From NCBI GenBank assembly GCA_019057865.1, contig JAHLWP010000002.1, positions 1-64,000 on the forward strand: a DNA stretch of 64,000 nucleotides, written 5' to 3'. Each line of letters begins with the position of its first letter. Position 1 is the stretch's first letter. The notes under the pieces are model-generated. The model saw nothing but the letters and a program-made list of their open reading frames with translations. It did no database searches and had not been told where the DNA came from. This stretch comes from Promethearchaeota archaeon. Its GTDB lineage: Archaea; Asgardarchaeota; Lokiarchaeia; Sigyniarchaeales; SOKP01. Shown here piece after piece: positions 1,594-44,510 of the stretch. A program made the translations under genes and the position numbers.

Positions 1594-3246
1594 CTAATAA
1601 ATTTTAAAACCTCTAAATAATTTTAAAAGATACATAATTTCCTCAGAACTTTCTATTAATCTTCTCAAATTATAAGGAAAACTATTTAATTCAACCTCTT
1701 TCCCTTCAGAAATCGTATTAATCATTATTTTTATAATTTTTTTATATTTTTCAACGGTATTATCTTCAAAGTCTATTTCTGAAATAACTTCCCAAGCTTT
1801 ATCTAGTTTTCCATTCAAGATACATGATATAGAGGCTAAAACATAACTATGTACAATATGAGATTCCCCAATTTTCTTTAGATTAGCCGCTTTATAATAG
1901 TATCGATATAAATTTTTTACCATTTCTCTTAAAAGAAAATCCTTTGCATCTTCCAGTTGCTCATAAAATTTTATGCTTTCCAAAATAAGAGTAGCTGCTG
2001 TAAAAAATTGCTTGTTTTTCAATCCCTCTTCAGCAATTTTATTTAAGCCTCTTATAATTTGATTGAATATCCCAAATCTATTAAATTCTAAGTTTCCTTC
2101 AACAGCCATATCATAAGCATTTAAATAACTTTCTGTAGATTCGTTTAGATTATCTATCTTCCAGTAATTATCGCCTGCTTTTACAAAATGCTTATATGCC
2201 ATTTCAAAATTTTCTAATTCTTTAAAAATATTAGCACCATCAAAAAAATTAACTGCTGCTTGATTAAAATCCTCTTCCTTTTTAAAATAATTTCCTGCCA
2301 AAACAAAACAAGAAGCACATTCAATAAGATTATTCTGTATTTCTTGATAACATAATCCTGCACCCCGATAATATCTCGCTATTTTATGGTAGTTTTCTTT
2401 TTTCTTCTCAATAGCTTCAGCTAAATCAATATAAGCTCCAGCTTCTCTTTTTGAATATTTTACGAAACGATCATCGTCATCTAGAATTTTATACAAATTT
2501 TTTAATATTTGACATATTTGAGCTGTTGTTGTACTATTATTTTTTTCTTTTAATTTAGTAATCAAATCAGAAAAGAATTCTATTCCATCTAAGATAACTT
2601 CTTTTGCTTCATTATACTCGTCTATTTTTTCATAGCAAGAGAAAATTTGTTGATAAGAATAAGATAGCAAATCATAAAAATTATGAATTTTTGAAATCTT
2701 GATTACTTTTTCATAATGTTTTATAGCATTTCTGAAATTAGAAGTTTTTAGATAAAGACTTGCTATGTTTTCATAATTTCGAGCTAATTTTCTTGTTTCA
2801 TTAAACTCGCTTAAAAGGTTAGTTTCTTGTTTTAGAAATTTAATACTATTTAATATATGCTTTTCTTCTTGTTTACTATCTTGAAACTTTTCATGGTACA
2901 AATCTGCAATCCTTAAGTATAATTCAGCAATTTCATGTAACTTTGCTTGAAATTTATAATCAATAATCTGTTTCTCCCAAAGCTTAATAATAATTTTATA
3001 TAATCTAAGAGACTGGTTAAAATCAAGTTCCTCAATTAATCCCGCAGCAGAATATAAAAATTCTCCCGCTTCAAAATACTCTCCTGAAAAAGCTATTTCA
3101 TTTGAAAAATTTATCGAAGAAGATACGATTTTTTTTATCGATTTATTTCTTTCTCCAGGATCAGTAATTCTTTTAATCTTAGATTCTGATTTTCTGAGTT
3201 TTTCTAAAAAATCTGAATAGTCTATGAATTCATCCTCTTCGATAAT
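1594..3246 (-). CDS. TPR/alpha-SNAP-like helical repeat protein (about 550 aa), probable ATT start
   Basis: Frame stays open 115 codons upstream of the listed TTG (2901) to ATT at 3246, behind SD GAGGAG with an in-frame TGA just upstream; repeated A..Y..A...Y/F helices. Confidence 0.7.
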   Translation of the reverse strand: MIEEDEFIDYSDFLEKLRKSESKIKRITDPGERNKSIKKIVSSSINFSNEIAFSGEYFEAGEFLYSAAGLIEELDFNQSLRLYKIIIKLWEKQIIDYKFQAKLHEIAELYLRIADLYHEKFQDSKQEEKHILNSIKFLKQETNLLSEFNETRKLARNYENIASLYLKTSNFRNAIKHYEKVIKISKIHNFYDLLSYSYQQIFSCYEKIDEYNEAKEVILDGIEFFSDLITKLKEKNNSTTTAQICQILKNLYKILDDDDRFVKYSKREAGAYIDLAEAIEKKKENYHKIARYYRGAGLCYQEIQNNLIECASCFVLAGNYFKKEEDFNQAAVNFFDGANIFKELENFEMAYKHFVKAGDNYWKIDNLNESTESYLNAYDMAVEGNLEFNRFGIFNQIIRGLNKIAEEGLKNKQFFTAATLILESIKFYEQLEDAKDFLLREMVKNLYRYYYKAANLKKIGESHIVHSYVLASISCILNGKLDKAWEVISEIDFEDNTVEKYKKIIKIMINTISEGKEVELNSFPYNLRRLIESSEEIMYLLKLFRGFKIY

Positions 3247-3520
3247 CTTAGTATCTCCTCAAAAAAAATTAATAACTATGCATAAAAATTAATATAAAAA
3301 TAAAAACAGTTTGTTTTCCTTCTTAAATTTTAGAAAAATTTAAAAAGAGGTTCCAATAATGTGGAATTTCAATTTACACATATATAATATACTGAATTAT
3401 TTTTACAAATAGGAAGATTTCGAATATATTTGATACAATTAAAATTTAAGAATTAATTATAAATATAAGAACAATAATATAATTATTAATTAAAAGCAAA
3501 TTATTGAGTAGATCAAAAAG

Positions 3521-3730
3521 ATGAAACAAATTTCTGAATTATTGGAAACAGGTATCTATGAAACGTTAACAATAGAGAAAAAAATGACTGTTGGCGATTT
3601 ATTAAAGGATTTAAATCTTGAAAATAAATACTTTGGCATCCTAGTTAATGGAAAGAAAGCAGATGAGAACACAATCATCCACCAAACTGATTCTGTTGTT
3701 GTGCTTCCACATATTGCTGGGGGCTCTTAG
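3521..3730 (+). CDS. MoaD/ThiS/SAMP-like small beta-grasp protein
   Basis: TVGDLL, ILVNG, VVVLPHIAGG-S C-terminus. Confidence 0.85.
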   Translation: MKQISELLETGIYETLTIEKKMTVGDLLKDLNLENKYFGILVNGKKADENTIIHQTDSVVVLPHIAGGS

Positions 3731-3924
3731 AACGTAATGATTTATTAACTTTTTTATTCTCTTTTTTAAAGTAGTATATTTGAGATCAATTCTTGAAATT
3801 TTTACAGATCTCTTTAAATACTTACTTTAATTGGTCTGGGAACCCATATAATATGAAAAAAAAAAGAAGATCTAAGATAATAAAACAAAATCTCTTTAGA
3901 CTTCAGAGTTTTTATATCAAGATC

Positions 3925-3959
3925 AACATAATAACAAAACAGTTATTTGTTATTATGTT
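3925..3959. terminator. Perfect 14-bp inverted repeat between convergent genes
   Basis: AACATAATAACAAA-acagtta-TTTGTTATTATGTT. Confidence 0.5.
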
Positions 3960-3987
3960 CACACAATAACTTTAACAGACTTAAAAT

Positions 3988-4629
3988 TCACAGACTTTGA
4001 GCCGAGTTTGTAAGTGACTTCCCACAATTTGGGCAAAATTTCTTCTTTAGTTTTAATCCCATCCCACAATAGGGACAAAATTTAGTAATTTGAGGTTTTC
4101 CAGTAATTTCTGCTTCGGTTTGTGTTGATGATGTAGTTTTAGGAGCGATTTCTATTAATTGTTCTGGGAATCCATATAAAATGATAATACTATAGACACA
4201 AATCCCTGCAACAACTATATCACCAAATAAATGCGCTATTAAGATTCCACTAGTTAATTCTGCTCTTGCTAATATTGCAATTGCCCGAATTTCCAAAAAC
4301 ATAGAAAAGGATGTGAATATAAGTACTATGATAGTTACAGCTTTACTAGTTTTTAATACTAGTGTTAAAACACCAAAATTTATACATATAGCAAGATAAA
4401 CAATGCCTATAAAAATCATCCCAATCCAAAAAAATAATGCTGCAGCTAATGATACAGCAGCGGCGGCAATGGCTTCCCCTAAATTAGAAGCAGTTATATC
4501 AAGATTAAAATTAAATAGAACTATTAATGCTTTTAACCCATTTTTTGAGAAAGCCATCAATAATATAGTGATAGAAAAGATAAGTATTATGACACCAGCA
4601 ATGGTCTTTAAAATTTCAACTTTATTCAT
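3988..4629 (-). CDS. Membrane protein with C-terminal zinc ribbon
   Basis: About 4 hydrophobic segments; FCPYCG...FCPNCG. Confidence 0.8.
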   Translation of the reverse strand: MNKVEILKTIAGVIILIFSITILLMAFSKNGLKALIVLFNFNLDITASNLGEAIAAAAVSLAAALFFWIGMIFIGIVYLAICINFGVLTLVLKTSKAVTIIVLIFTSFSMFLEIRAIAILARAELTSGILIAHLFGDIVVAGICVYSIIILYGFPEQLIEIAPKTTSSTQTEAEITGKPQITKFCPYCGMGLKLKKKFCPNCGKSLTNSAQSL

Positions 4630-4794
4630 ATCAAATAATCACACTTTTTTTAATTTAAAATTATAATATTTTTTTTTAATTTAATGGATTATAAGAAGAA
4701 ATAAAGATATACCTTAATTTATAGATTTCTAAAATAGGGATAGTAAAATAAAATTTTTGTTAAAAATTATTTGAATCAATAGTCTTTAAAAACT

Positions 4795-5778
4795 TCATTT
4801 AAGCTCAATTCTTAAAAGATCTTCTGCTAAGATTGTGTTTGGAAAAATTTCTTTAGCTTCTTCAAGTAATTTTAAAGCATCATCTTGGTATCTTGCTGAG
4901 ATATGCGTCAAGATTAATTGTTTAGCATTCATTTTTATAGCATCAAGGGCAGCATCAACAGAGGTAGAATGTTTCTTTTCTTTAGCTGTTTCAGCTAATA
5001 TCTTAGAATATGTGGCTTCATGAATTAGAATATCAGAATCTTTTCCTAATTCTATTAGGGAATTGCTTGGTGCCAAATCTCCAGAATAAGTAATTTTTCT
5101 ACCTGGTCTTTTTGGACCAACAATTCCTTCTTTTACAGGGTTAATAATTTTTCCATTAAATTCAATCTCTAAACCTTCTTGAAGTTTTTTCCATGTTCTA
5201 CTCTCAGGAATCCCTAACTCTTTAGCTCTTTCAGGATTAAACTTTCCATAACGAGGATTTTCAATAAAAGAATATGCATAAGTAGTTATCGAATGGTTAA
5301 CTAGTGCGAATCTTATTGAGAAATATTTTGACTTATAAATTAAATTATCTTTTATTTTTACAGTATCTTTGGGAACCTCAGTATCTAAGCCTTCAAATTC
5401 TATTAAATCTTTATTAATATGATCAATTTCAACAATTTTAATTGGATATTTAGCTTTTAAGCCTAGGATTTTTTTATGAAGATATATATAAAGGAAAAGA
5501 TTTTGAGGACCAAAAATGGTAAGAGGTGCAGTCCTTTCAATTAGACTTAATCGAAATAAGAATCCTGGAAGACCTATAATATGATCTCCATGAAAATGTG
5601 TTATAAATATCTTTAAAGGTTTATTAAATTTTAAACCTGCTTCTGCAAATCTACGCTGGAAATCTTCTCCACAATCAAACAATAATATTTGATTTTTATA
5701 TCTTAAAGCTATAGCAGATAAATTTCGATTTTTAATAGGAGTAGCCGCAGCACTGCCTAAAATAAATAATTCTATCAT
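4795..5778 (-). CDS. rnz: Ribonuclease Z
   Basis: THFHGDH motif, flexible arm GKFNPERAKELGIP, HEAT, HST and LTHISARY motifs. Confidence 0.93.
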   Translation of the reverse strand: MIELFILGSAAATPIKNRNLSAIALRYKNQILLFDCGEDFQRRFAEAGLKFNKPLKIFITHFHGDHIIGLPGFLFRLSLIERTAPLTIFGPQNLFLYIYLHKKILGLKAKYPIKIVEIDHINKDLIEFEGLDTEVPKDTVKIKDNLIYKSKYFSIRFALVNHSITTYAYSFIENPRYGKFNPERAKELGIPESRTWKKLQEGLEIEFNGKIINPVKEGIVGPKRPGRKITYSGDLAPSNSLIELGKDSDILIHEATYSKILAETAKEKKHSTSVDAALDAIKMNAKQLILTHISARYQDDALKLLEEAKEIFPNTILAEDLLRIELK

Positions 5779-5799
5779 AACTTTTAATTAGCGCTAGTT

Positions 5800-7101
5800 T
5801 TATTTTTTTCTTAACACTGAAATCTCTAACCTTTGTTCGGCATTCTGCTTTTTTAGATCTTCAATTAAACTTTTAAGTTCCTTCAATCTTAAAGTTAAAT
5901 TAGGATCTTCTGCTGAAGCTGGTGGCGGTTGACTCTGAGGTTGAACATAACTACCTTCTAATTTTTCTTGTAATTCATTAATTTTTTTGTCTTTTAATCT
6001 AATTTGAGATTCTAGTTGTTTATATTTACCTTTTATTTGGACAGCTTCGTTTTTAATTGTTTCAATTTCTCCTTCTCTTATTTCAAGTTGTTTCTGTAGA
6101 AAAATAGCCATCTCTCTTTGCATTTTTAATTGTCCTTCCAATTCACTTTGAGGTTTAGCTTGTTCTGGTGGCTTTTCACCGTCGTACTGCTTAAGTTGCT
6201 CTTGAAGAGATCTTATTTGAATTTTAGCCTTATTCAGTTTGTTTTGCAAATCTTGTAAAACTTCAGAAGGAGCACCAGATTGTTCTGTATCAAATTCTAC
6301 TTCAACCTGTTGTATTGTAGATATATCACTCTTTAAATTTTGGATTTCTATATCTCGTTTTTCTAAAAGTTCTTTTAAATCATTAATCTCACTTGTTAAC
6401 TCAGACTCTTCCGTTACTTTTTCTCCCTTTTTTTCCTTCTTTTTGAATTTTTCAAGTTTTTTGTTTAAATCTTGTACTTGTCTTTTAGATTTATTTAGTT
6501 GGTTTTGAAGATCTTCAATTAAAGTTTTCTGAATTGAAGCACTTTCTTTATCTCCATCAGCACCATTTATTAAACTCTGATTCAATTTTGAAATATCTGA
6601 TTTTAGTGTAGCAATTTCTTCTTCTTTCTCTTTCAGTATTACACTAATTTCTGCTTTTTTATCAACTTGTCTTTTTAAATCATTAATAGATGAGCGTTGT
6701 TTATTTATTTTATCTTGTAATTCATTTACTAAAGTATTGAGAGGAGATTTGGGTTTTAAATCTTCTATTCGAATAACTGAAGAAGTAGAATTTTTTTTTT
6801 TTAATTTTTCAAGTTTTTGTTGAAGCTCTATATTTTTTTTTCTTAAAAATCCCATTTTATCTTTTAATTGTCTAAATTGCTTGTCTTTTTCTTCAATTTC
6901 TAAAGTAAATATTGAATCCATTGCTTGCATTTTTTTACTCTTTTTTGTACTGACTGCAGAAGGAATAACTTCTTCTTCCAAATGCATAATATGATCTTCG
7001 AGTTCTTCGATTATATCAAGTAAACTGAGAATTTCTTGTTCTTTTTCCTCCAAATCCTTCTTTAATTGATTGCTTCTATCTTTTAGAGGATCTTTCGACA
7101 T
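5800..7101 (-). CDS. Long coiled-coil protein
   Basis: E/K/Q/L heptads; recurring LQxxLNKxKxQI segments. Confidence 0.75.
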   Translation of the reverse strand: MSKDPLKDRSNQLKKDLEEKEQEILSLLDIIEELEDHIMHLEEEVIPSAVSTKKSKKMQAMDSIFTLEIEEKDKQFRQLKDKMGFLRKKNIELQQKLEKLKKKNSTSSVIRIEDLKPKSPLNTLVNELQDKINKQRSSINDLKRQVDKKAEISVILKEKEEEIATLKSDISKLNQSLINGADGDKESASIQKTLIEDLQNQLNKSKRQVQDLNKKLEKFKKKEKKGEKVTEESELTSEINDLKELLEKRDIEIQNLKSDISTIQQVEVEFDTEQSGAPSEVLQDLQNKLNKAKIQIRSLQEQLKQYDGEKPPEQAKPQSELEGQLKMQREMAIFLQKQLEIREGEIETIKNEAVQIKGKYKQLESQIRLKDKKINELQEKLEGSYVQPQSQPPPASAEDPNLTLRLKELKSLIEDLKKQNAEQRLEISVLRKK

Positions 7102-7242
7102 CTTGAAAAATTACCTTTATTCCTTAAAATAAAATTTTCTTATATTTTACTTATACAATTTTAGTAATTAAATTTTAACTAATATGATAATTTTTAGTTG
7201 TGTTAAAAAGTGGTCAATTCTCGATTCATATTAAAATTAGAC

Positions 7243-9156
7243 TTAATAGAGATTAAAATCTTTAATATTAAATTTGTTAATCTTTTTCATAATTGGAATA
7301 AGGCTCAAAATATTGAAAATTATAAACGCTATAAACAGGAATGAAAGAAGAATGAATGGCAAGTATAATGGTGGTAAAGAAACCCGCTCAAACAAGAAGA
7401 TTGAGTTAATAATCATTCCTATTCCTAAACATAATAAAAGAGCAGGGATGATGATAAAGAGAGATTCCAAGAATAGTATTTTTTTTAAAGACTTATTCTT
7501 TGAGCCTATTGCCCGCATAATGAGAAAATCTTTTGCCTTTTCAATGATTCCTCCTCGTTGATAAAAATTTAATATTAAAAGAGACACGAAAGCTATTATC
7601 AGGATTAAAATTATCGGGTATAATGATAATTTAAATAAATAATTTATATTTTTTTTGAAAATAGCGTCTAACTTTAAATGAATAAAATCTGCGCCCAAAT
7701 TATTAGTTATGTTATTAATTTCATCTATAATTATATGATAACTTCCAGATTTTAGTTTTAGTATAATTAAGTTGATTTCATCGTAAGTAAAATTTAATAG
7801 CTCACGAGATTCATTTAATCCGATATAACCAGCATAACCATTAAAGAAACTATCAATTAATACACCACAGATACCTGGTCCAAATGTTTTATTTAAACCC
7901 CTAATTTCTAGAAATTGATCTAAGGGATACTCAAAGAAATTGTATGCTAATCCATCTCCAATTGTCATATATGCAAAAGAATCATCATTTGTAAAAAATC
8001 TACCTTCAAGTTCAAAATTTTGAATAATTTTCTCTGGATTTACTCCTATTATTGGAAAATTTCCAGTTCTTTGTTTTCCTACTGTTTTATATTCACCATC
8101 AATTATAATATGGCCATCTAATTCTTCAACATCATAAAAATTTATTAATCTCTCGTCTATCTTTTCAATATCATCAATTGTTTCCAGATTATTAATGTCA
8201 CTGAAATTAAAAATGTATTTTGTGTCTGTAAGATTTATTATATCTTCATCAACTATTATTCCTGGATTTGAAAACATTTTATACATTAAGGAATAGTTAT
8301 ATACAACATCTTTGTGACCAATAACAACAATATTCTCACCTTGGGATTTTCTAATCCACTCCTGAGAAGAACTAGTTAAAACAATAGTGCCTAATCCCAA
8401 AGTAAAAATTATAAGAGAAATTAAACTAAAAACAATGATATATCTTCTAAATTCTCCCTTTCTTCTTATATTATTAATTACTGAAATTTTTAAATTAAAT
8501 CCTAGTTTTGAAAGCCACTTTGGAACTAAACTTAATCTTTTCTTGGCATTAAAATTATAAGGTATATCTGCTGAAAAAGTTTTAATTATTTTTTGAGTCC
8601 CAATTTTCCTTAAAGCATAACCAGTTACAAAAAAAATACCCAAAATACAAGAAATGAATATAATAGGTGTATAAAACCAATCAATTTGAAAATTTATAGG
8701 AACCTTTAATAAAAACATGATTAAACTAAATATTCCAAATGATGTCAAGCCCAGAATCCAGCCAAGGATAAAACCTAGTATAAAAATAATAAATGCTTCG
8801 AGAAGATAAAAGCTATATAATTTCCCTGGTAGGGTACCCAACGCTTTCATTATAGCAATATCTCTTTTCTTATGGATAATTAACGTAGTTGTAATGACAA
8901 CAACTACAACTATTGATAAAATGATTACTAAAACAAGTACTAAAGAAATAAACTCTTTATATACTAAATTAATTGCACCTGTAAAGAAATAAGGATTTTT
9001 TAAACTGGTAGATATTACCATATTTAAACCAAATGAAGATGTGAAATATATTAAAAATTCTGTCAAAGCAATTACCAAAACAATAATCAGTAAATAAGGA
9101 ATTGTGGTATCTTTTTTCCGATAAATATCTTTTAAGGCAAAATCTATTGAAGACAC
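7243..9156 (-). CDS. FtsX/MacB-like ABC transporter permease
   Basis: Two KKRDIAIMKALG / KDFLIMRAIG motifs, multiple TM helices. Confidence 0.85.
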   Translation of the reverse strand: MSSIDFALKDIYRKKDTTIPYLLIIVLVIALTEFLIYFTSSFGLNMVISTSLKNPYFFTGAINLVYKEFISLVLVLVIILSIVVVVVITTTLIIHKKRDIAIMKALGTLPGKLYSFYLLEAFIIFILGFILGWILGLTSFGIFSLIMFLLKVPINFQIDWFYTPIIFISCILGIFFVTGYALRKIGTQKIIKTFSADIPYNFNAKKRLSLVPKWLSKLGFNLKISVINNIRRKGEFRRYIIVFSLISLIIFTLGLGTIVLTSSSQEWIRKSQGENIVVIGHKDVVYNYSLMYKMFSNPGIIVDEDIINLTDTKYIFNFSDINNLETIDDIEKIDERLINFYDVEELDGHIIIDGEYKTVGKQRTGNFPIIGVNPEKIIQNFELEGRFFTNDDSFAYMTIGDGLAYNFFEYPLDQFLEIRGLNKTFGPGICGVLIDSFFNGYAGYIGLNESRELLNFTYDEINLIILKLKSGSYHIIIDEINNITNNLGADFIHLKLDAIFKKNINYLFKLSLYPIILILIIAFVSLLILNFYQRGGIIEKAKDFLIMRAIGSKNKSLKKILFLESLFIIIPALLLCLGIGMIINSIFLFERVSLPPLYLPFILLSFLFIAFIIFNILSLIPIMKKINKFNIKDFNLY

Positions 9157-9169
9157 TATCTAAAACCAA

Positions 9170-9928
9170 TTATCCTTCATTTCTTTTAGTTAATATATCT
9201 TCCTTTACTATTTTCCCATCATCAAATAGTAGAATTCTATCTGCTAAACCTAGCAAATAATCATCATGAGTAGCAATAATAATTGTGACATCATCATTCT
9301 TTAAATCATTAAAAAGATCTCTAATAAACTGACTTGTTTTTTTATCCAAATTAGCAGTTGGCTCATCGGCAAGTATAAGTGGAGGATTATTTGATAGAGC
9401 TCTAGCAATTGCAACTCTCTGCTGTTCTCCAGCTGATAATTGAAATGGCAGATGTTCTCTGCGTTCACCTAATCCCATTTTTCTTAATAAATTAACTGCA
9501 CGTTCTCTTTGCTCTTTAAATTTCATACCTGCAAGATTCATTGGAAACATAACGTTTTCCTCAGCAGTAAGAGTACTTATAAGATTATAGTTTTGAAAAA
9601 TGAACCCTGAATTTATTAACCTAAACGTTGCTAGCGATTCTTCTTTCATATCAGAAATTTTAATGCCAAGATTGTAAATCGTTCCTTTGTTGGGGGTATC
9701 TAATCCACCTATTAAATTCAATAAAGTTGTTTTTCCTGCTCCAGAAGGTCCTTTAATACAAAGAAATTTACCGCTCCTAATTTTTAAAGACACATTATCA
9801 ACTGCTCTAACAATAAATTCACCTATTTCATAATCTTTAACTAAATTCATAGCAATAATGTGATAATTCTTTATCTCATCTAACTCTAAAGCACCATCTT
9901 CATCTTCAAATTCTTCTTTTACTGTCAA
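9170..9928 (-). CDS. ABC transporter ATP-binding protein (LolD/MacB-like)
   Basis: GPSGAGKT, LSAGEQQR, ILADEPT. Confidence 0.92.
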   Translation of the reverse strand: MTVKEEFEDEDGALELDEIKNYHIIAMNLVKDYEIGEFIVRAVDNVSLKIRSGKFLCIKGPSGAGKTTLLNLIGGLDTPNKGTIYNLGIKISDMKEESLATFRLINSGFIFQNYNLISTLTAEENVMFPMNLAGMKFKEQRERAVNLLRKMGLGERREHLPFQLSAGEQQRVAIARALSNNPPLILADEPTANLDKKTSQFIRDLFNDLKNDDVTIIIATHDDYLLGLADRILLFDDGKIVKEDILTKRNEG

Positions 9929-10381
9929 GATTTCAAAACTATTACCAGATTTTAATTTAAATTAAAAAGACTCTTCAAAGAAGATAAAAATTCTTTAAAA
10001 ATTCTACTTAAAGAATTAATAACAAATTTTTATAATTTATGTTTAAAATTAAATTAAGTTTAAATATTAAAATTTCATATTTATCTTTTAGAGGGAAGAC
10101 TAAGAAAATAAAATATTTATAATATCCCCTAATTTCCTAATTAAACACTCACGCAATTCGCGCCAAGGATCAAATGGTACTAAATTTTTCCCAAGGTTTT
10201 AAGCTACATGCTTAAGATTTTGATTTTCTCTTCTTCCTTCTTCTTCTTTTTCTAATTTTTGATAAAAAATTTAGAGATTATATTTATTATTTCATTAAAA
10301 TAAGATTTAAAGGACAGATTTAATTTAATATTAATAAAAATTAAGGTATAATTTATATATAAAAAAAATGTGTAGATTTTT

Positions 10382-11014: not shown

Positions 11015-11285
11015 GAATTCTTTAACAATTTTTATTAATTTTATCTTTCCTCCTTAATATTTCAACTTTTACATTTTGGATTTATAAATTATAAAGAATC
11101 TTTTTTAAGTATTTTATATCTCTTCTATGATTTGTGGATATTTTAATTAAAATATAATGAGAAGATTTATACTCTTTTTGAATTGTTTATATCTCAAGAA
11201 TTAATCTAACTAAATTATCCTTTCTAATATAAGATTTTTAAAAAATATTTCAGAATAGAATAATAATTTAAAGGAGGTTTAAAAA

Positions 11286-21628: not shown

Positions 21629-22834
21629 TTAACCCATCTTTTCAATTAATTTATCTACAATTTCTTTGAAATCCAAATCCTCTGGTTTTGGGACAAATTT
21701 GATTTCAATTTTTTCATCCAAAACATCTATTTTTGCTGCCTTCATTTGTTCTATTATTTCTTTTACAGCACCACCACCCCATCCGAAAGAACCAAAAGCT
21801 AATCCAACTTTATTCATAGGTTTCAAACCCTTTTGATAGCATAAATATTCTGCTACAGCGGGATAAAGTCCATTGTTTAGAGTAGGGCTTCCTATTAATA
21901 TTGCTTTTGCCTTCATTGCCTCAGTAATAACATCAGAGTAATCTGCGTGGGTTAACCTGAATCTTTTGACTGGAATGCCTCTATGGCGAATTTCTTTTGT
22001 CAAAGCTTTAGCTATTTTTGCTGTACTCTCCCACATTGTATCATATACTATTAAAACCCTTTTTTCTTCAATTTCTCCTGCTGACCATTTTCTATACTTC
22101 TCCAATATCTCTGGAATATATTTTCTCCAACAAACTCCATGAGAAGTACATATAAGATCAATAGGTAATGCTCCAACTACAGGTAAAGTTTTTGCTATAA
22201 GTCCGGATAAGTGAAGCAAAATATTTGCATAATATTTTTCTGCTTCTTCCATAATTTCACATAGATCATTCTCATCATCCCAACGCATAGTGGTTGCAAT
22301 ATGTTGTCCAAAAGCATCATTAGAAAACAGAACATTTTTCCCATTATTATCTGTCATAAATGATACCATAGAATCTGGCCAATGTATCATAGGTATTGGT
22401 ACGAAAGTAAATTTTTTGCCATTCCCGATTTCTAAAGTATCTCCATCCTTAACTGCTCGAATTTTATCAAGTACCTCAGCATCTACTTCTTGATGAAAGT
22501 GGCTCTTTAAAACATCAACTCCTCTAACTGAAGCAATTATTTCTGCGTTAGGTAGATATTTTATAATTAGTGGAAAAGATCCTGAATGGTCCATTTCAAT
22601 ATGATTCATAATTAAATAATCAATTTCTGCTGGATCACATATATCTTTTATTTTATCTAAAAAATATTCGAAATATGGACGTTTCACAGTGTCTATTAAT
22701 ACTGTTTTTTCCCCTTTTACTAAATACGCATTATATGAGGAGCCCCTATGTGTACTATATCCGTGAAAGTTCCTTACTTCCCAATCTACATAACCAACAT
22801 AATAGATATCTTTCATTAATTCTAAATGTGTAAT
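21629..22834 (-). CDS. fprA: Flavodiiron protein (FprA), probable ATT start
   Basis: HIEMDHSG, HWPD, FSNDAFG, flavodoxin domain; (M)THLEL-MKDIYYVG behind SD AGGTGA. Confidence 0.9.
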   Translation of the reverse strand: MTHLELMKDIYYVGYVDWEVRNFHGYSTHRGSSYNAYLVKGEKTVLIDTVKRPYFEYFLDKIKDICDPAEIDYLIMNHIEMDHSGSFPLIIKYLPNAEIIASVRGVDVLKSHFHQEVDAEVLDKIRAVKDGDTLEIGNGKKFTFVPIPMIHWPDSMVSFMTDNNGKNVLFSNDAFGQHIATTMRWDDENDLCEIMEEAEKYYANILLHLSGLIAKTLPVVGALPIDLICTSHGVCWRKYIPEILEKYRKWSAGEIEEKRVLIVYDTMWESTAKIAKALTKEIRHRGIPVKRFRLTHADYSDVITEAMKAKAILIGSPTLNNGLYPAVAEYLCYQKGLKPMNKVGLAFGSFGWGGGAVKEIIEQMKAAKIDVLDEKIEIKFVPKPEDLDFKEIVDKLIEKMG

Positions 22835-22979: not shown

Positions 22980-23117
22980 TTAGTCAATTTTTTCAAACAT
23001 ATCTTTACCAACACCACAAACAGGACATGTCCAATCATCTGGTAAATCCTCAAACTTGGTACCTTCAGCTTCTTCGTCATAAATATATCCGCAAGCGGTG
23101 CATTCCCAACGTGAAAT
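22980..23117 (-). CDS. Rubredoxin (45 aa), not in the ORF track
   Basis: (M)[44 protein letters not shown]; ATT behind SD AGGTGG. Confidence 0.93.
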
Positions 23118-23209: not shown

Positions 23210-23356
23210 TTAAGAAATCGATACTTTTTCAAACATCCTTTTTGAAGCCCTACACCTCGGACATTTAAAACTAGCATCATCTTGTTCTTCTAATGTTTTT
23301 TCTTGTTGCTCATCAATATAGAGGTACTTGCACTTCTTACACCTATATGTTGAAAT
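23210..23356 (-). CDS. Divergent rubredoxin-like protein (48 aa), not in the ORF track
   Basis: (M)STYRCKKCKYLYIDEQQEKTLEEQDDASFKCPRCRASKRMFEKVSIS; ATT behind SD AGGTGA. Confidence 0.8.
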   Translation of the reverse strand: MSTYRCKKCKYLYIDEQQEKTLEEQDDASFKCPRCRASKRMFEKVSIS

Positions 23357-27172: not shown

Positions 27173-27199
27173 GATTAAAAAAGGTGTGTTAAAATAAGT

Positions 27200-28030
27200 A
27201 TGCACGGAAAGATTTGTATGATAACTGGTGCTAATTCTGGTATTGGGAAGGCTACAGCTTTAAGTATTGCAGAAATGGGTGCAGTAGTAATTATGATATG
27301 TCGAGATAAGAATCGTGGGGAAAGTGCCCAGAAAGAAATAATAAATGAAACAGGTAACAAATCTGTGGATCTACTCATATGTGATTTAACTTCACAGGAA
27401 TCTATTTACAAACTAGTTGAAAATTTTAAAAAGAAATATCAAAAGTTGCATGTTTTAATTAATAATGCTGGAGTTGTTAAAACGAATAGAACCTTAACGA
27501 TTGATGGATTTGAAACAACTTTTGCTGTAAATTATTTAGCACCTTTTTTATTAACAAACTTACTACTGGACATACTAAAGAAAAGTGTTCCAAGTCGAAT
27601 TGTAAATGTTAGTTCTGGAATCCATAAGAATGGCAATATTAATTTTGATGATTTACAAGCAGAGAATAAGTATAGATCTTATAAAGCATATGGTCAACCG
27701 AAATTAGCATTAGTACTTTTTACTTATGAATTAAGCAAGAAAATAAAAGGTACTGGTGTTACTGTTAACGCATTACATCCAGGATTCACTCGAACTAATA
27801 TAGGTCGAGATTATTCTGTATTTATACGGGCATTTACAAAATTATCTAAGAATCCTAAAAAAGGTGCGGAAACTTCTATATATTTAGCCACATCTCCAGA
27901 AGTAGAAGGAATAACTGGTAAATATTTTATTAAAAAACAACAAACAATGTCGTCTAAAGATTCATATAACAAAGAACTTGCTAAAGAATTGTGGAAAGTT
28001 AGTCTTGAGTTAACAAAGTTAAATATTTAG
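27200..28030 (+). CDS. SDR oxidoreductase (retinol dehydrogenase-like)
   Basis: TGANSGIG, NNAG, YxxxK (YGQPK), LHPG. Confidence 0.9.
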   Translation: MHGKICMITGANSGIGKATALSIAEMGAVVIMICRDKNRGESAQKEIINETGNKSVDLLICDLTSQESIYKLVENFKKKYQKLHVLINNAGVVKTNRTLTIDGFETTFAVNYLAPFLLTNLLLDILKKSVPSRIVNVSSGIHKNGNINFDDLQAENKYRSYKAYGQPKLALVLFTYELSKKIKGTGVTVNALHPGFTRTNIGRDYSVFIRAFTKLSKNPKKGAETSIYLATSPEVEGITGKYFIKKQQTMSSKDSYNKELAKELWKVSLELTKLNI

Positions 28031-31463: not shown

Positions 31464-31472
31464 GAGGGGTAT

Positions 31473-32456
31473 ATGAAGGAAGAATATAAATGCCCCTGTC
31501 GGGATGTTGACCCAAATAATTTTCTTGAAAACGAAGAAGTTGACTGGTTAATTAATAACCGGAAGAAATATAAATTCCAACAAAAAGATTACTTAAAACT
31601 TTATAATTGTATTCATTGTAATGATTGTGGCACCTCTGAGCAACGATTTATTTTAAAACAGAAATTTTTAAAGGATGGAAATAAAATTGAAGGTTTAAAT
31701 AATACCATTGAAACATTAGAAAAATATGGAACTCCTTTTCAATACAACAAAAGTCGGATTAAACACATCGAAGGTATTTCTAAAGAGAGTAATGCTCTTT
31801 TATATTTAGGTTGCTTTACAACGGTTAAAACCCCTCGTTATGGAGAAAGCATTATAAAATATCTTGTGCAGAATAATGTTAAATTTTGTATTTTAGAAGA
31901 AGAAATTTGTTGTGGTTATCCTATATTATGTACTGGAGAAATAGATACATATAATCATTTAGTGGAAAGAAATTTAGAGCTATTTAAGTCAAAAGATTTT
32001 GAAGAAATAATCACTGTTTGTCCTAGTTGTTATATGGTATTTAAGAAACATTATAGTAAGTGTAATATAAAAGTGAAGTATTTTACTGAGTATTTAAAAC
32101 CTCCAAAGAGTAAAAAATCTGGAAATTTAATAATACAACATGCTTGTCCTTTAAAAAATGGAGAAATCCCTAATATTGCAGACGATATTGAAGATCTTTA
32201 TAAAAATATTGGGTATAATGTATTAAATTCTGTACCAAGAAATTGTTGTGGAGGTGGTGTTGGCCATCAATTACGAACTGAAATATCTGAGTCAATTGCT
32301 ATAAAAAGGATGGAAGATTTTAAATTAAAATTATCTAATGAGAATAATAATTATATTACTACCTATTGCCCTGATGCGTATTGGATATTAAAAGTATTTG
32401 GGAGAAGGGCTAAGATAGATTTTAAACTTATAAATATGTGTGATTTACTCAAATAA
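31473..32456 (+). CDS. CCG-domain (HdrD/GlpC-like) Fe-S protein
   Basis: CIHCNDC, GC, CCG, CPSC, HAC, CCGGG, CPD. Confidence 0.82.
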   Translation: MKEEYKCPCRDVDPNNFLENEEVDWLINNRKKYKFQQKDYLKLYNCIHCNDCGTSEQRFILKQKFLKDGNKIEGLNNTIETLEKYGTPFQYNKSRIKHIEGISKESNALLYLGCFTTVKTPRYGESIIKYLVQNNVKFCILEEEICCGYPILCTGEIDTYNHLVERNLELFKSKDFEEIITVCPSCYMVFKKHYSKCNIKVKYFTEYLKPPKSKKSGNLIIQHACPLKNGEIPNIADDIEDLYKNIGYNVLNSVPRNCCGGGVGHQLRTEISESIAIKRMEDFKLKLSNENNNYITTYCPDAYWILKVFGRRAKIDFKLINMCDLLK

Positions 32457-36126: not shown

Positions 36127-36136
36127 AAAATCTGTT

Positions 36137-36895: not shown

Positions 36896-36952
36896 TTTTA
36901 TAAACCTTTTAATTGTTTAATATAAATCTTCTCTTAATAATAACAAAAAAGA

Positions 36953-38503: not shown

Positions 38504-38648
38504 TTTGGAATTACTCGAGTCTTACTTCCATTCTTGGTTTTATTAATCATTCTTATAATATCTTCTTCTTAATATGATTTATATTTAATAAAAATAAGGA
38601 ATTAAATTTTATTCTCTAAAATTTAAAGGAAAGAAATAAAAAGAAAAT

Positions 38649-38735
38649 TTATTCCATATTCACATACGCGCTGTGAAATTCTGGTTCCTTGAACGGTACA
38701 TCTATCTTCAATAGTCCATTTTTATACTCTGCTTT
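38649..38735 (-). pseudogene. Hsp20 / alpha-crystallin 3' remnant
   Basis: KAEYKNGLLKIDVPFKEPEFHSAYVNME* preceded directly by an in-frame TGA. Confidence 0.65.
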
Positions 38736-38886
38736 TCAAAAATAGGATATTAAATAGAGTTCATTAAAAAATTTTTTACATATATTATTGAAACTTATGT
38801 AGAATTATTAGGGAAAGGAAATTAAAAGGTTTTATTATACAATATAAACTAAACGCATAAAAATTATTCATAATATTGTTATCATA

Positions 38887-39126
38887 ATGAGTGAAGCTGA
38901 AAGTCAAGATGTTATAGAAAGTTATAAGTTTCACCACATTGACACAAGTAAATGCCGTCAATGTAAAGAATTTTCTTGTGAAGAAGCTTGTTTTAGAGGA
39001 ATTTATAAGGTAATTAATAAAAAGACAATTCCTAAATCAACTGTTGTACAAGAGCGAGAGGATCACTGTGTTAAATGCCATATTTGTACAACAGCATGTA
39101 AATTAGGAGCTATTACAATTGATTAG
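38887..39126 (+). CDS. Ferredoxin (2x[4Fe-4S]-like)
   Basis: CRQCKEFSCEEAC and CVKCHICTTAC. Confidence 0.82.
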   Translation: MSEAESQDVIESYKFHHIDTSKCRQCKEFSCEEACFRGIYKVINKKTIPKSTVVQEREDHCVKCHICTTACKLGAITID

Positions 39127-39247
39127 ATTTTATACATCTTCTACATATATTATTTATTCGATAAACTTATAATTTATAAATTGTTATAAATTGTTAGTAA
39201 ACCTATTCTAATATAATAGTAGTAAAAAACTTTATTAAAGTGTTATT

Positions 39248-39787
39248 ATGATTAGTCAAAAGTTAAAATTAGACGATATAGATCGTCAAATTATTACACT
39301 AGTACAAGAAGATCCGAATTTAACTCATACCCAGATTGCGGAAAGAATAAATCGCAGTCAACCTACAGTTGGGATGCGTATTAAAAAACTTGAAAAATCT
39401 GGTATATTACAATTCCAACCTGGGATTAATTTTAAAAAAGTAGATCTGTTTTTAGCAACAGTAGAAATTAATTCAAGCAATCCTGAAGAAATTATGGAAA
39501 TGGCAACTTGTTGTCCTTTCATGCTTAATGCTTTCAGATTGAGTGGAGAACATAATATTTGTATTTTATTAGCAAGTTCTAAACTTGATAAGCTTGATGC
39601 TATCGTAAATTACCATTTTAGAAAAAATCCAGAAGTATCATTAGTTTCAATGGAAATCGTGACTGATATCGCTAAAGATTTCATATTACCAATCGACTTT
39701 GACTCTGAACATCATGAACCCAATGAAGAAGTCGGCTGTGGAGAGAAATGCAAATATAAACTAGCCAAGATGCAAAATAAAATCTAA
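39248..39787 (+). CDS. Lrp/AsnC family regulator
   Basis: LDDIDRQII, SQPTVGMRIKKLE, SGEHN; C-terminal CGEKC. Confidence 0.9.
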   Translation: MISQKLKLDDIDRQIITLVQEDPNLTHTQIAERINRSQPTVGMRIKKLEKSGILQFQPGINFKKVDLFLATVEINSSNPEEIMEMATCCPFMLNAFRLSGEHNICILLASSKLDKLDAIVNYHFRKNPEVSLVSMEIVTDIAKDFILPIDFDSEHHEPNEEVGCGEKCKYKLAKMQNKI

Positions 39788-39806
39788 CCAAAAAAATAAA
39801 AACTTT

Positions 39807-40376
39807 TTAATCTTCTTGTTTAAGCTCATTAAACTTAAATCGTGGTAAATCTTCTTTTAAAGAGCATCCAGGACCGCAATATCTACCATCAAATTTCTCA
39901 ATTGTGAAATCAATTGGGACTACGAAATCATGGATAGATTCTATTAAAATATTTGTTTTTACGTTGATTACATTAGGGTCTCTTCTAAAACATAAATCTA
40001 CTAATTTTTCGATTGTTTGTAAATCTGAAGCTGCAATAAAACATAACATATTAAATTCCCCCGAAATTTTAAATGCATGATTAATAAATGGGCAATTTTT
40101 TATTTTCTCAACTACATTTTCAACATCTTTAGTTGAGATATATACAATAGCAACTTTTATATCAACTTCTTTCACATTAAATCCAACTTGCTTTGTCAAA
40201 AGATGCTTTCTTTCCAATTTAATGATTCTTGCACCTACTGCAGGCTGGGATTTTTCAATCTCTTTAGCTATAGCAGAATGAGTTATATCTGGGTTTTTCT
40301 CCATCATCTCGATGATTATCTTATCGGCATCATCGATGCTTAATAATTCATTAAAACTTTTTTTCTTCATATCCAT
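39807..40376 (-). CDS. Lrp/AsnC family regulator
   Basis: IDDADKII, SQPAVGARIIKLE, SGEFN; C-terminal CGPGC. Confidence 0.9.
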   Translation of the reverse strand: MDMKKKSFNELLSIDDADKIIIEMMEKNPDITHSAIAKEIEKSQPAVGARIIKLERKHLLTKQVGFNVKEVDIKVAIVYISTKDVENVVEKIKNCPFINHAFKISGEFNMLCFIAASDLQTIEKLVDLCFRRDPNVINVKTNILIESIHDFVVPIDFTIEKFDGRYCGPGCSLKEDLPRFKFNELKQED

Positions 40377-40577
40377 TTTATTTCATAACCTCACGTTAAT
40401 TTAAACTTATTTTTAATAAATTTAAATTTTTTTAAGAGAATGATTATAGAGAATAATACTATTCAATCAAAACTTTTTGTATTATAAATTTATAATTATA
40501 AATCTAAAGTTTAAAGGTAGTATTAAATTTGAAATTAATGAATTAAAAAAAAAATAAAAAATAAAAAGGTGAATTGA

Positions 40578-42514
40578 ATGGAAGGAAAAAGAATTTCTTA
40601 TCATGATTCAGTTCAAAAAGTTTATGAGAGAATTAAAAAAGATGGAATGATTAATATTTGGGACCGTTTTGAGGCACAAGGTTTTGGTGGTGATCCTGAT
40701 AAAAGATGTCCTTTTTGTTTGAAAGGTGCAAGATGTGATTTATGTTCAAACGGTCCATGTAGAGCAGATGCTTCAATTGATAAGAGAGGTGTATGTGGTA
40801 TTACCGCTGATGGAATGGCAATGCGAATGATGCTTCTGAGAAACATATTGGGCGCATCAACTTATCACTATCACACAGAACAAACGATTAAAACATTAAG
40901 AGCAACTGCGGAAGGAAAAACACCATTTAAAATTTCAGAACCAGAAAAGCTCAAAAATTTTGCAAAAAGACTTGGTGTTGATATTTCTGGCTCAGATAAT
41001 GATATTGCTCTTCGATTATGTGATTTTGTTAAAGAGGATTTTAACAGAGCCTACGACAAACCTAGCAAAATTGTAGAGACTTTAGCACCCAAAGAAAGAC
41101 AAGAAGTATGGAAAGAATTAAATATATTTCCAGGGGGAATTTATGGGGAGATGATGCTTTCTAATAGTTCATGCTTGACAAATGTGGATGGTTATTATAC
41201 GAGCTTAGCTCTTAAGGCCATGAGACTTGGAGTTTCCATGGCTTACCAAAGTCAAATTGTAAATGAATATTGCCAAGATATCCTTTTTAATATTCCAAGA
41301 CCCCATAAAATGCGTGTAAATCTTGGAGTGCTTGATCCAGATTATGTCAATGTAATACCTAATGGACATGAACCATTTTTAGGATTTGCTATGGTTCAAG
41401 TTGCTAGAAAACCAGAATGGCAAGAAAAAGCAAAGGTTGTAGGCGCTAAAGGTCTTAGAATAATAGCCAATATTGAAACTGGACAAGAAATGATACAAAG
41501 ATGGGAGATGGATGATGTTTTTTATGGGTTCACAGGTAATTGGATAATGCAGGAAGCTATTTTAGCGAGTGGTTGTATTGATATTTTTGTATGTGATATG
41601 AACTGTTCGATGCCAATTGATCCAATCTATGCTGAGAAATATAAATTTAAATTAATCCCTGTAAGTGAAGTAGTAGCTTTTGAAGGTATTACAGATAGGT
41701 TAAATTATATTCCCCAAGAAGCAGAAAAACAAGCAGAACAACTTTTACAGATGGCAATCGACAACTTTAAAGAGCGAAGGGCAAGTGTGGAACCAGTAAC
41801 AGGATTAGATATGAGTGAAGCTATTGTTGGTTTTTCTACCGAAAGTATCCTTGATGCACTTGGTGGAACTTTAGATCCTCTATTAGATGCTATAAAGAAT
41901 GGCACAATAAGAGGAATTGCTGGATTAATTTCTTGTACAAGCTTAAGAGATAATGGTCAAGATGTCCATACTGTAAGTATTACCAAGGAATTGATTAAAA
42001 GAGATGTATTGGTGTTATCAATGGGGTGTGGTAATGGAGCTCTACAAGTAGCAGGGCTTTGTTCCCCAGAGGCAAAAGAACTCGCAGGTCCGGGTCTTAA
42101 AGCGATATGTGAGAAATTAGGCACACCCCCAGTTCTAAGTTATGGAACATGCACAGATACAGGACGTGTCGCGGATTTAATTGCCATAATTTCAAATGCT
42201 CTTGGAGGAGTCCCAATTCCTGATCTTCCAGTAGTAGCAGTAGCTCCAGAATATATTGTTGGTGGATTCGGAACCAATAAGCTTTAATGGAGCAGAAGGC
42301 TACAATTGACGCGATCTTCGCGTTAGCGTTTGGATTATATACGTACGTGAACCCTGTACCTACGGTTACTGGTGGTCCCGATCTAGTTAAACTTTTAACT
42401 GAAGATTGTAAAGATGTTACCGGTGGTATCTTACACGTCGAAACTGATACACTCCAAGCTGTAAATTCTATGTTAGAGCATATTGAAGCAAACAGGAAAA
42501 AATTAGGTATTTAA
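40578..42514 (+). CDS. cooS: Ni-Fe carbon monoxide dehydrogenase CooS, intron-containing (exons 40578-42254 and 42287-42514; 634 aa spliced)
   Basis: CDLCSNGPC, GVCG, NGHEP, GLISC, GCG, YGTCTD; PEY|MEQKA restored by removing 32 nt. Confidence 0.9.
42255..42286 (+). other. Predicted BHB-type mRNA intron, 32 nt
   Basis: Exon-exon stem GCTCCA/TGGAGC, relaxed central helix GAAT/GCTT, bulges AT|A and TA|A, inner stem TTGTTGGT/ACCAATAA. Confidence 0.85.
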
Positions 42515-42530
42515 CTTTTTTTTTTATTTT

Positions 42531-43493
42531 TTATATTATACTTCTAAAAGTATTAATAATGAAAATTAGTATAGTAAATCCGATGAGCCCAATTATAAAT
42601 TTTATTGGATCTCCTTTTTCTTTTTCTGGAATAACTTCTCTTACTATAACATATAAAATAACACCTGAAATGAAAGAAAAGAAAATAAATAAGAGTTCTA
42701 AATTATGGGGAAAGATTGAATTTAGGATAAAGCCAATAATAATTCCTATAAGTGCTGAAGTTGCTAGAATATACTTCTTAATTGGTTTTACATCATGTTC
42801 TATTGTCTCGTATATTTCTAAATCAGTAAAAATGATATGTGCCTCTGATCTCTTGGTTATAACTGTTCGAAACCATGCAAATATAAAAAAAAGAATCCCA
42901 GCTACTAATTCGAAACTTAAAAGGCCTACTAATATAAGACCTACAAGAAAATGATATATATAATCAGTAAAATATCTAAATCTGGTTAATTCCCTACTAA
43001 TACGATTTTGGATTTTTATTTTATAGTTATTAATTTCAAGTTTCATTTCCTCTTCTTGTTTATTCAAAGACGACAAAGTTTGAGAAATATCTCTTAAGGC
43101 AGCTTCATCTAATTCTTCTTGTGTTAATTCTTTTGTAAGAATATGTTCCATATTACGTTCTACTGCTTCTAAGGTTTTCTCTTTCTTAAGCAATTTCCGC
43201 ATTTTTTTCTGGGTTTTTGATTCAACTTTTTGTAAAATTAATTTTTCAGATATATGAATAAAAGTAAATCCAATTAAAACAAAAAGATACTCAAAAAGTT
43301 CTGAATGAAATGGAAATTCTGGCAAACTTTTAGCAATTTCAGGCAGGACAACAAGAAAAAAGTAAGAAACAGATATTCCTGCTATAAGGGAAGCGTGTAA
43401 TTTATTTATTTTATGTTCATAATAATCAGAAATAAAAAAGGATACTCCAAAAACTAAAGAAAGAATAATAACCATTATTAGACTGTCTGTCAT
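42531..43493 (-). CDS. ZIP-like membrane protein with cytoplasmic coiled-coil insert
   Basis: AGISVSYFFLVVLPE, SGVILYVIVREVIPE; charged central insert. Confidence 0.65.
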   Translation of the reverse strand: MTDSLIMVIILSLVFGVSFFISDYYEHKINKLHASLIAGISVSYFFLVVLPEIAKSLPEFPFHSELFEYLFVLIGFTFIHISEKLILQKVESKTQKKMRKLLKKEKTLEAVERNMEHILTKELTQEELDEAALRDISQTLSSLNKQEEEMKLEINNYKIKIQNRISRELTRFRYFTDYIYHFLVGLILVGLLSFELVAGILFFIFAWFRTVITKRSEAHIIFTDLEIYETIEHDVKPIKKYILATSALIGIIIGFILNSIFPHNLELLFIFFSFISGVILYVIVREVIPEKEKGDPIKFIIGLIGFTILIFIINTFRSII

Positions 43494-43604
43494 TATTATT
43501 GTTATTATTTCTAAGATTTTTTAAAGTTTATAATATAAAGTCATAAATTAAATGTGAATTTTAATTAATCAACTTAGGAACCTTATTCTTAATGGTGAAT
43601 ATAA

Positions 43605-44510
43605 ATTCAGTTTTTAATTATTACTTCAAGCGAAGATATTGCTTCGATGAATATTCGTAATAAATTAATCAATTCAAAAGCCTTTATTTTTGAGGAAACT
43701 GAATATTTTTGGCATAAGAATCCACTCTTTGAATTTAAAGGATTTTCGGGTAAGAGTGAAGAAAGTCTAAATTTTAACACTGATCAAATATATCTTGGTT
43801 TAACAAAAGAATCCCTTATATTTTTGAATGATTTAAATTTGGGTAAATTAGCACTTAATCCAGATTTAATTATATTTGCCAGTCGTCATAGATCTAAAGC
43901 TCAACGACCTGCATTTTTAGCTCATCTAACCGGTAATTGGAGTAGCAAGGCTGAATTTGGAGGTAATCCTTCTGAATTATCTTTGGCAAGTGCTCTATTA
44001 TTTAAAGCAGGAATTTTATCTTTGCTAGAAAACTCAAAAATCTGTACAGTCTTAGCTAATTTCTCAACGGATATTGAAGTGACTCATCATGGTCCTACTA
44101 CTTTGGAGAAACCATTAATTTTTATGGAACTAGGGAGTACTAAAGAAGAATGGAGTATTGATGAAGCTGGAGAGGTTGTAGCTAATTCTATAATTAATGC
44201 AATTTATAAGTATTTAGATTTTAAGGAAAAGAAAGATCAGTATATTGGCTTAGGTTTTGGGGGTACGCATTATGCTCCTAATTTTCAAAGATTAGTAATA
44301 AATAGTAATGTCGCAATGTCTTTTATATGCCCGAAATACTATATACAAGAACTGAATAGAGATTTGATTGCGCAAATGATAGAAAATAACCTTGAAAGTG
44401 TTGATTATTTCATAATTGATTGGAAAGGCACAAATTCTGAAGATAAAAAGCATTTGGTTCCTTTATTAGAAGAATTTGATATCCCTATTAAAAAGACTAA
44501 AGATTTTTAA
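43605..44510 (+). CDS. dtdA: D-aminoacyl-tRNA deacylase (archaeal DTD2), probable ATT start
   Basis: (M)QFLIITSSEDIASMNI, FASRH, HLTGN, EVTHHGP, FMELGS, GGTHYAP. Confidence 0.9.
   Translation: MQFLIITSSEDIASMNIRNKLINSKAFIFEETEYFWHKNPLFEFKGFSGKSEESLNFNTDQIYLGLTKESLIFLNDLNLGKLALNPDLIIFASRHRSKAQRPAFLAHLTGNWSSKAEFGGNPSELSLASALLFKAGILSLLENSKICTVLANFSTDIEVTHHGPTTLEKPLIFMELGSTKEEWSIDEAGEVVANSIINAIYKYLDFKEKKDQYIGLGFGGTHYAPNFQRLVINSNVAMSFICPKYYIQELNRDLIAQMIENNLESVDYFIIDWKGTNSEDKKHLVPLLEEFDIPIKKTKDF

Follow-up and report, generated by a model that had tools for sequence, protein, structure and literature searches.

Start codons of the form AUH (AUU, AUC or AUA; ATH in DNA) are recognized in several systems. 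NCBI translation table 11 lists ATT, ATC and ATA as alternative initiators, mitochondria and Mollicutes commonly start at them, and the Escherichia coli pcnB gene starts at AUU. Another E. coli gene, infC, which encodes initiation factor 3 (IF3), starts at AUU and is under translational autocontrol (Butler et al., 1987, cited in PMC4705826). Here, starts of this kind are described in an Asgard archaeon. The stretch under study, hereafter the window, is the whole of 64,000 nucleotides from a Promethearchaeota archaeon (positions 1 to 64,000 of contig JAHLWP010000002.1, here C41), part of a 4.26-Mb archaeal metagenome-assembled genome (MAG; G000) of 87 contigs and 29% GC. The window very probably holds four or five ATT-started genes, and in the genus about 2% of genes very probably start at ATT, ATC or ATA 6-7 bases past a strong Shine-Dalgarno sequence (SD).

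The type of feature is known from table 11, infC and mitochondria; its scale, conservation, SD dependence and lineage are new. As in infC, an SD-led AUU would be read by an ordinary initiator tRNA, and the gene of the factor that polices start codons begins at AUU (IF3 there, the archaeal factor aIF1 here). However, only a few genes are concerned in E. coli, whereas here about 2% of genes are, AUC and AUA are used too, and the fidelity factor is a homolog of eIF1. Table 11, mitochondria and Mollicutes share with this archaeon the three codons as rare starts and an AT-rich genome, but mitochondria rely on a modified tRNA-Met and no SD, whereas the archaeal starts go strictly with strong SDs whose spacing is fixed. 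In eukaryotes, near-cognate initiation is accompanied by autoregulation of eIF1 through a poor start context (PMC4705826, PMC5666671). There too usage hinges on the stringency of the factor (eIF1 there, aIF1 here), whose own mRNA has a weak start signal; however, eukaryotic initiation involves scanning and favors CUG, GUG and ACG, whereas here SD positioning and third-position variants (AUH) dominate. Reviews describe SDs as rare in Lokiarchaea and leave AUH starts unmentioned (PMC12993045, PMC7531240), and a full-text literature search, which covered few subscription journals, did not turn up any account of AUH initiation in Asgard archaea.

Five genes of the window carry the pattern (Table 1). 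On re-reading the sequence, all five ATT codons, SD motifs and spacings were found as claimed in the original prediction, together with its canonical comparison, cooS, a gene of the Prismane/CO-dehydrogenase family, and the in-frame stops that it had placed just upstream of three of the ATT codons. In the SNAP/TPR gene, the in-frame TGA (3261-3259) overlaps the SD and is separated from the ATT by four sense codons, and the first canonical codon (ATG, GTG or TTG) is a TTG at 2901, 115 codons downstream. In the rubredoxin-like gene, the stop (23365-23363) is the TGA of the SD AGGTGA, two codons before the ATT, and no canonical start lies ahead of the first CxxC. In DTD2, TAA (43602-43604) stands immediately 5′ of the ATT, and the first ATG, at 43647, is 14 codons downstream. 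At these three sites, AUH thus marks the 5′ edge of a conserved coding region, with a stop upstream and no ATG, GTG or TTG available. Judged from sequence, without mapped transcript ends, leaderless initiation does not describe any of the five, as each has an SD match of at least 5 nt located 5-8 nt upstream. The sites at 3246, 22834, 23356 and 43605 are well supported as real start sites.

Table 1. Coordinates of the ATH starts and associated features (window positions unless a contig is named; nt, nucleotides; aa, amino acids; ORF, open reading frame).
Feature	Position	Strand	Motif, spacing and start	Gene and remarks
SNAP/TPR, ATT start	3246-3244	-	GAGGAG (3260-3255)-8nt-ATT	1594-3246, 550 aa
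fprA (flavodiiron protein), ATT start	22834-22832	-	AGGTGA (22847-22842)-7nt-ATT	21629-22834
Rubredoxin, probable ATT start	23117-23115	-	AGGTGG (23128-23123)-5nt-ATT	22980-23117
Rubredoxin-like, ATT start	23356-23354	-	AGGTGA (23368-23363)-6nt-ATT	23210-23356, 48 aa, CxxC...CxxC
DTD2, ATT start	43605-43607	+	GGTGA (43594-43598)-6nt-ATT	43605-44510, D-aminoacyl-tRNA deacylase
Reference canonical start	40567-40580	+	AGGTGA-5nt-ATG (ATG 40578)	Prismane/CO-dehydrogenase family protein
Candidate sixth case	27194-27202	+	AGGTG-7nt-ATA (27194)-AGT-ATG (27200)	Short-chain dehydrogenase
Mini-ORF, 9 codons	22822-22851	-	ATG AAG GTG AAA GAA AAA TTA CAC ATT TAG	Overlaps fprA SD and start
aIF1 (SUI1 family)	C77:24514-24729	-	GGTTGTGA 9 nt upstream of ATT	Outside window
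Initiator tRNA	C77:728-859	+		Anticodon CAU, two introns
tRNA-Ile	C41:172466-172621	-		Anticodon UAU, 61-nt intron, outside window

The 16S rRNA of G000 ends in ...GGATCACCTCCT, so that the full SD is AGGAGGTGATCC, paired by the segment ...GGAUCACCUCCU. The SDs of the ATH starts are complementary to this 3′ end and lie at the spacing of ATG genes. A genome-wide count of SD plus ATT was made on the 3619 non-overlapping ORFs of at least 100 codons in G000. In-frame codons were counted if they lay four or more codons ahead of the first canonical codon and followed a 5-mer of AGGAGGTGAT, spacing being given as aligned spacing; tabulating the codons after every SD 5-mer was dropped because it is confounded by codons adjoining canonical starts. 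First canonical codons peak at spacing 6-7 (ATG 131, GTG 19, TTG 42), and the same peak is seen for ATT (44/1811), ATA (24/1419) and ATC (8/430), whereas the control codons AAA, AAT, TTT, TTA and TAT together reach 29/8677 there and show no peak. The pattern of SD followed by ATT, ATA or ATC exceeds chance. After subtraction of the background, SD matches of 5 nt or more account for about 60 ATH starts and 4-nt matches for about 17, a total of about 77 genes (about 2% of ORFs) which omits ATH starts with no recognizable SD. Where the SD is strong and optimally spaced, ATT (about 38 net) roughly equals TTG in frequency and exceeds GTG, and the ATH codons together account for about a quarter of such starts. 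ACG (3/70) and CTG (5/86) also have hits in this genome, at SD spacing 5-6.

The 76 strong-SD ATH sites are non-redundant apart from two similar pairs. They lie a median of two codons past an in-frame stop, which is often the TGA within GGTGA, and a median of 21 codons ahead of any canonical start; 50 of the 76 are within five codons of an in-frame stop. Ten sites with long extensions were compared with Pfam, and in seven of them a domain starts within residues 1-21, well ahead of the first canonical codon. The domains include a GFO_IDH_MocA Rossmann fold (residues 1-120), AFOR_N (6-205), ThiF (10-240), two Fe-S proteins (Fer4, Fer4_8), an E2 UQ_con domain and an alpha/beta hydrolase. ORFs in which 50 or more codons precede the first canonical start make up 3.0% of the G000 set vs. 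0.6% in a sample of G026, a genome of the same order with similar GC, an excess of which the strong-SD ATH class explains only part.

Similar starts are found in other genomes, each sampled over 400 kb. G006, a closed genome of the same genus, has six ATT and five ATA at spacing 6-7 vs. 23 canonical codons. G026, which belongs to another family, has five candidates vs. 25 canonical codons, at least one of them convincing. This is a MazF/PemK-like gene (region of G026:C1:1349290, loci L183-L202) in which GGTGA-N6-ATT follows an in-frame stop two codons upstream, and the conserved core ...LNLEPTIGHEISKTRPCVIIS... lies 30 codons upstream of any canonical start. Given these candidates, the trait probably extends past the genus. 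In G027, a relative with 53% GC, strong-SD starts are too few for a reading.

At least 18 other species genomes belong to the genus, and the codon aligned to each ATT was read in orthologous loci from up to 30 relatives. The SNAP/TPR gene, whose product matches Pfam SNAP (5e-11) and TPR repeats, has GAGGAGA-N7-ATT in 19/19 genus genomes, all of which also keep the SD and the upstream stop (TGA or TAG); in other families of the order an ATG is found close by. Its product is 72-98% identical across the genus, and the match to soluble NSF attachment protein may bear on membrane-trafficking homologs in Asgard archaea. In fprA, AAGGTGA-N7-ATT stands in 13 of 15 aligned genus orthologs and the other two have ATG, and a 16th, offset locus (G002) starts at ATG. 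The SD AAGGTGA is kept in the ATT-bearing orthologs and reads AAAGTGA in the ATG-bearing G012, and codons 2-6 (T-H-L-E-L) show synonymous changes only. The mini-ORF listed in Table 1 begins 17 nt 5′ of the fprA ATT, out of frame; its ATG is found in several fprA orthologs, although not in all.

The other start columns are more varied. DTD2 has GGTGA-N6 followed by ATT in seven, ATC in seven, ATA in two and ATG in one of 17 genus genomes, and in a second collection of 43 species genomes the start is ATT in 12, ATC in 15, ATA in five, ATG in 10 and TTG in one. The start column of the rubredoxin-like gene holds ATT in eight genomes (G000 included), ATC in one, TTG in one (G012) and GTT in one (G017). 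The G017 locus (L043) reads taggtgaataaaa|GTT ACA ATT, with a TGA stop two codons upstream; its candidate starts are ATA, GTT, or the ATT two codons downstream. For rubredoxin itself, most orthologs carry ATG at the aligned codon (MGKWEC vs. I/M-SRWEC), and ATT is found only in G000 and one other genome, both with an in-frame canonical codon just upstream. The Pfam Rubredoxin profile begins at residue 3 of the ATT-started protein, and the ATT at 23117 is a probable start site. When the whole window was compared by synteny with five genus genomes, two further genes showed such swaps. In the gene at 31464-32456, G003 has 'aggtgattaca|ATA' vs. 'aggtgattaca|ATG' in G015 and G011, and the gene at 3512-3730 starts at ATA, GTG or ATG across relatives. 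Canonical starts at the identical codon thus occur in relatives for fprA, the rubredoxin-like gene, DTD2 and these two genes. The short-chain dehydrogenase headed by the candidate sixth case (27179-27202) had no ortholog among the five syntenic genomes. Its SD spacing favors ATA 27194 over ATG 27200, and either is a possible start.

Substitutions in the stretches between ATT and the first canonical start follow the reading frame. At codon positions 1/2/3, pairwise differences per site average 0.17/0.11/0.43 for SNAP/TPR codons 2-115, 0.16/0.08/0.50 for DTD2 codons 2-14 and 0.05/0.03/0.37 for fprA codons 2-6, and no codon periodicity is found in the 60 nt upstream of each ATT in these three genes. 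To judge from this bias, the N-terminal stretches are coding and translated. The N-termini predicted from the ATT codons are (M)QFLIITSSEDIASM for DTD2 and (M)THLELMK for fprA. With the ATT as residue 1, residue 8 of fprA aligns with residue 8 of Moorella FprA (1ycf), and residue 4 of DTD2 aligns with chain residue 25 of Pyrococcus horikoshii PH0006 (2gfq), which places DTD2 residue 1 at chain residue 22. The PH0006 chain has about 21 extra N-terminal residues, presumably a tag; if so, both native N-termini would coincide.

A second common property of the ATH starts is the strength of their SDs. An SD match of 5 nt or more precedes about 78% of ATH starts vs. about 42% of canonical SD-led starts, and the ATH starts cluster at spacing 6-7. 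Among DTD2 orthologs, a 5-mer SD precedes 28/32 ATH starts vs. 1/11 ATG or TTG starts (Fisher 5e-6, kinship ignored). In G012, the ATG of fprA follows a weakened SD, AAAGTGA. These comparisons indicate that ATH starts depend on SD anchoring more than canonical starts do.

The initiator tRNA is ordinary. Its gene, with anticodon CAU, was found by pattern search; the spliced product folds into a cloverleaf that has A1:U72, an anticodon stem containing three G:C pairs, and CUCAUAA as the loop. Two introns interrupt the gene, one of about 25 nt past position 37 and another of about 30 nt within the T-loop. ARAGORN, with and without intron mode, gave only 13-18 tRNAs and no tRNA-Met, and the initiator is absent among the 28 matches listed from an Rfam tRNA scan. 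No other tRNA among those found bears initiator hallmarks. The genome also encodes a tRNA-Ile whose anticodon is UAU (Table 1); most archaea read AUA with a modified CAU tRNA.

The single SUI1-family gene of G000, aIF1, itself starts at ATT, as it does in 16/16 genus genomes with data (loci L157-L182). Its 5′ end consists of a stop, 1-3 codons, ATT AAA GAC... and then the zinc knuckle CPIC...CIC, with no canonical codon ahead of the domain and with a weak SD-like motif (Table 1). Elsewhere, the start is ATA in genus g5, TTG in g2 and ATG in others. Archaeal aIF1 is described as a proofreading factor in Sulfolobus solfataricus and Pyrococcus abyssi (PMC4705826, PMC6237735). The factor encoded here is of the same family, with the N-terminal zinc knuckle and a basic loop 1 (RKWGR) (PMC6237735), and loop 1 shows no striking loss of the basic residues studied in P. 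abyssi (RKWGR vs. R-Y-G-K). AUU mRNAs are excluded there in vitro, however, whereas the present lineage keeps dozens of AUU-started genes.

Taken together, the ATH codons are very likely genuine starts, at which a strong SD would set the P site on AUU, AUC or AUA and the ordinary CAU initiator Met-tRNA would initiate. Several points weigh against this reading. All of the evidence is computational and drawn from DNA, counts across relatives are non-independent, and the figure of about 77 genes is a background-subtracted estimate. As reviewed in PMC4705826, Sulfolobus aIF1 rejects AUU mRNA in vitro, and efficient AUU use therefore needs relaxed stringency. The tRNA census is incomplete and the tRNA genes are intron-rich, so a second initiator-like tRNA is conceivable. 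The rubredoxin case is ambiguous because an in-frame GTG (23126-23124), three codons 5′ of the ATT, sits inside its SD, although this GTG has no SD of its own. In fprA, an ATG (22816) lies only six codons downstream of the ATT, is kept in nearly all orthologs and could serve as well or in addition. Public gene calls, too, use such downstream codons. Yet it is very improbable that the starts are the first downstream ATG or TTG, the upstream stretch being an untranslated leader or only occasionally used. Those codons have no SD at a usable distance, and the rubredoxin-like gene offers none ahead of its first CxxC. Starting there would remove 115 conserved SNAP/TPR codons, the first strand of DTD2 and, genome-wide, whole Rossmann, Fe-S, AFOR_N and E2 segments, and the extensions show the substitution bias at codon position 3. 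A dedicated decoder, either a second initiator-like tRNA (GAU or UAU) or a tRNA modified at C34, as in the mitochondrial tRNA-Met that reads AUA, is likewise very doubtful. The incomplete inventory, the tRNA-Ile(UAU) gene and the invisibility of base modifications in DNA leave room for one, but the sole tRNA with initiator hallmarks has a plain CAU, and the free interchange of ATT, ATC, ATA, ATG and TTG at one site is more in keeping with one initiator tolerant of third-position mismatches than with a codon-specific one. An artefact of sequencing, assembly or binning is effectively refuted: the genome is a fragmented MAG with an estimated contamination of 5%, but the same codons recur in dozens of MAGs that many studies assembled independently, and in two closed chromosomes. 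Decaying pseudogenes fare no better, as the ORFs are intact and under purifying selection. A variant genetic code or reassignment was also considered and rejected, since table 11 yields full-length proteins with Pfam and PDB matches; initiation alone is unusual.

It is possible, although less likely than not, that the starts are real and carry no regulatory meaning, being near-neutral products of AT mutation that are tolerated where a strong SD compensates. The 29% GC genome, the strong SDs that accompany ATH, the wide range of functions of the affected genes and the turnover between close relatives (G000 vs. G012: ATT/ATG in fprA, ATT/TTG in the rubredoxin-like gene) all fit this account. In some genes, however, the codon itself does look selected. 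ATT is invariant in 19/19 SNAP/TPR and 16/16 aIF1 starts, whereas none of 25 internal all-Ile columns (0/25) of SNAP/TPR keeps one codon. The fprA start column holds ATT or ATG and never ATC or ATA, despite 38% ATC plus ATA among its internal Ile codons. The third base of the SNAP/TPR and fprA starts is, on these comparisons, more constrained than a synonymous site. The DTD2 start tolerates all three ATH codons.

For SD-anchored initiation by the ordinary initiator, a simple sequence of steps can be proposed. The SD:16S duplex would fix the ribosomal P site over an AUH 6-7 nt downstream, where the CAU initiator Met-tRNA would start with a third-position mismatch, Met being the first residue. 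Initiation at AUH would be weaker than at AUG, and the strong SD would compensate. AT-biased mutation would supply ATG-to-ATH changes, and these would be tolerated, or in some genes selected, in a lineage whose start-codon stringency is set low. Low stringency may in turn stem from the AUU start of the aIF1 gene. Archaeal aIF1 discriminates against AUU in vitro, and an AUU-started aIF1 therefore has the architecture of IF3 (infC) autocontrol. A more speculative and rather unlikely extension is that negative feedback through this AUU keeps stringency low enough for some 80 AUH genes to be expressed, as a 'stringency regulon' whose output would track the level of aIF1; the genes of aIF1 itself, an E2 ubiquitin-conjugating enzyme, fprA and DTD2 would be among them. 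The part of such a loop that is seen here is the weak start of aIF1, kept across the genus. If true, the regulon would be an archaeal counterpart of the autoregulation of IF3 (through AUU) and eIF1 (through poor context), on the branch closest to eukaryotes.

The broader view of AUU in the original prediction requires some revision. Its suggestion of a routine initiator holds insofar as the codon is recurrent and evolutionarily maintained, but only about 2% of genes, and about a quarter of the strong, optimally spaced SD starts, are concerned. Nor is AUU the only codon, since ATC and ATA occur as well. The starts are linked to strong SDs, and the rubredoxin case is ambiguous. The alternative idea of a shared throttle on three oxygen-detoxification genes is unsupported, because close relatives use ATG or TTG there: the closest, G012, has ATG in fprA and TTG in the rubredoxin-like gene, and most members of the genus start rubredoxin at ATG. 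The expectation that gene callers truncate such genes was borne out. On this contig, the public DTD2 has 287 aa and starts MNIRNK, and the public fprA has 395 aa and starts MKDIYY; the 401-aa MTHLEL form appears in 1/15 fprA cluster members among those listed.

ATT, ATC and ATA starts thus cause ordinary gene finders to shorten or miss genes. Proteins of this Lokiarchaeial genus, which is large and uncultured, are stored truncated or are missing, with DTD2 short by 14 aa and fprA by 6 aa; SNAP/TPR would be 115 aa shorter, and the annotation of other genes drops entire Rossmann, Fe-S and E2 segments. Such truncation distorts domain inventories, including those of the 'eukaryotic signature' proteins sought in Asgard genomes. 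That weak start codons go together with strong and precisely spaced SDs shows compensation between two initiation signals under AT pressure. With dozens of conserved AUH starts and an AUU-started aIF1, this lineage offers a natural system for start-codon stringency near the archaeon-eukaryote transition.

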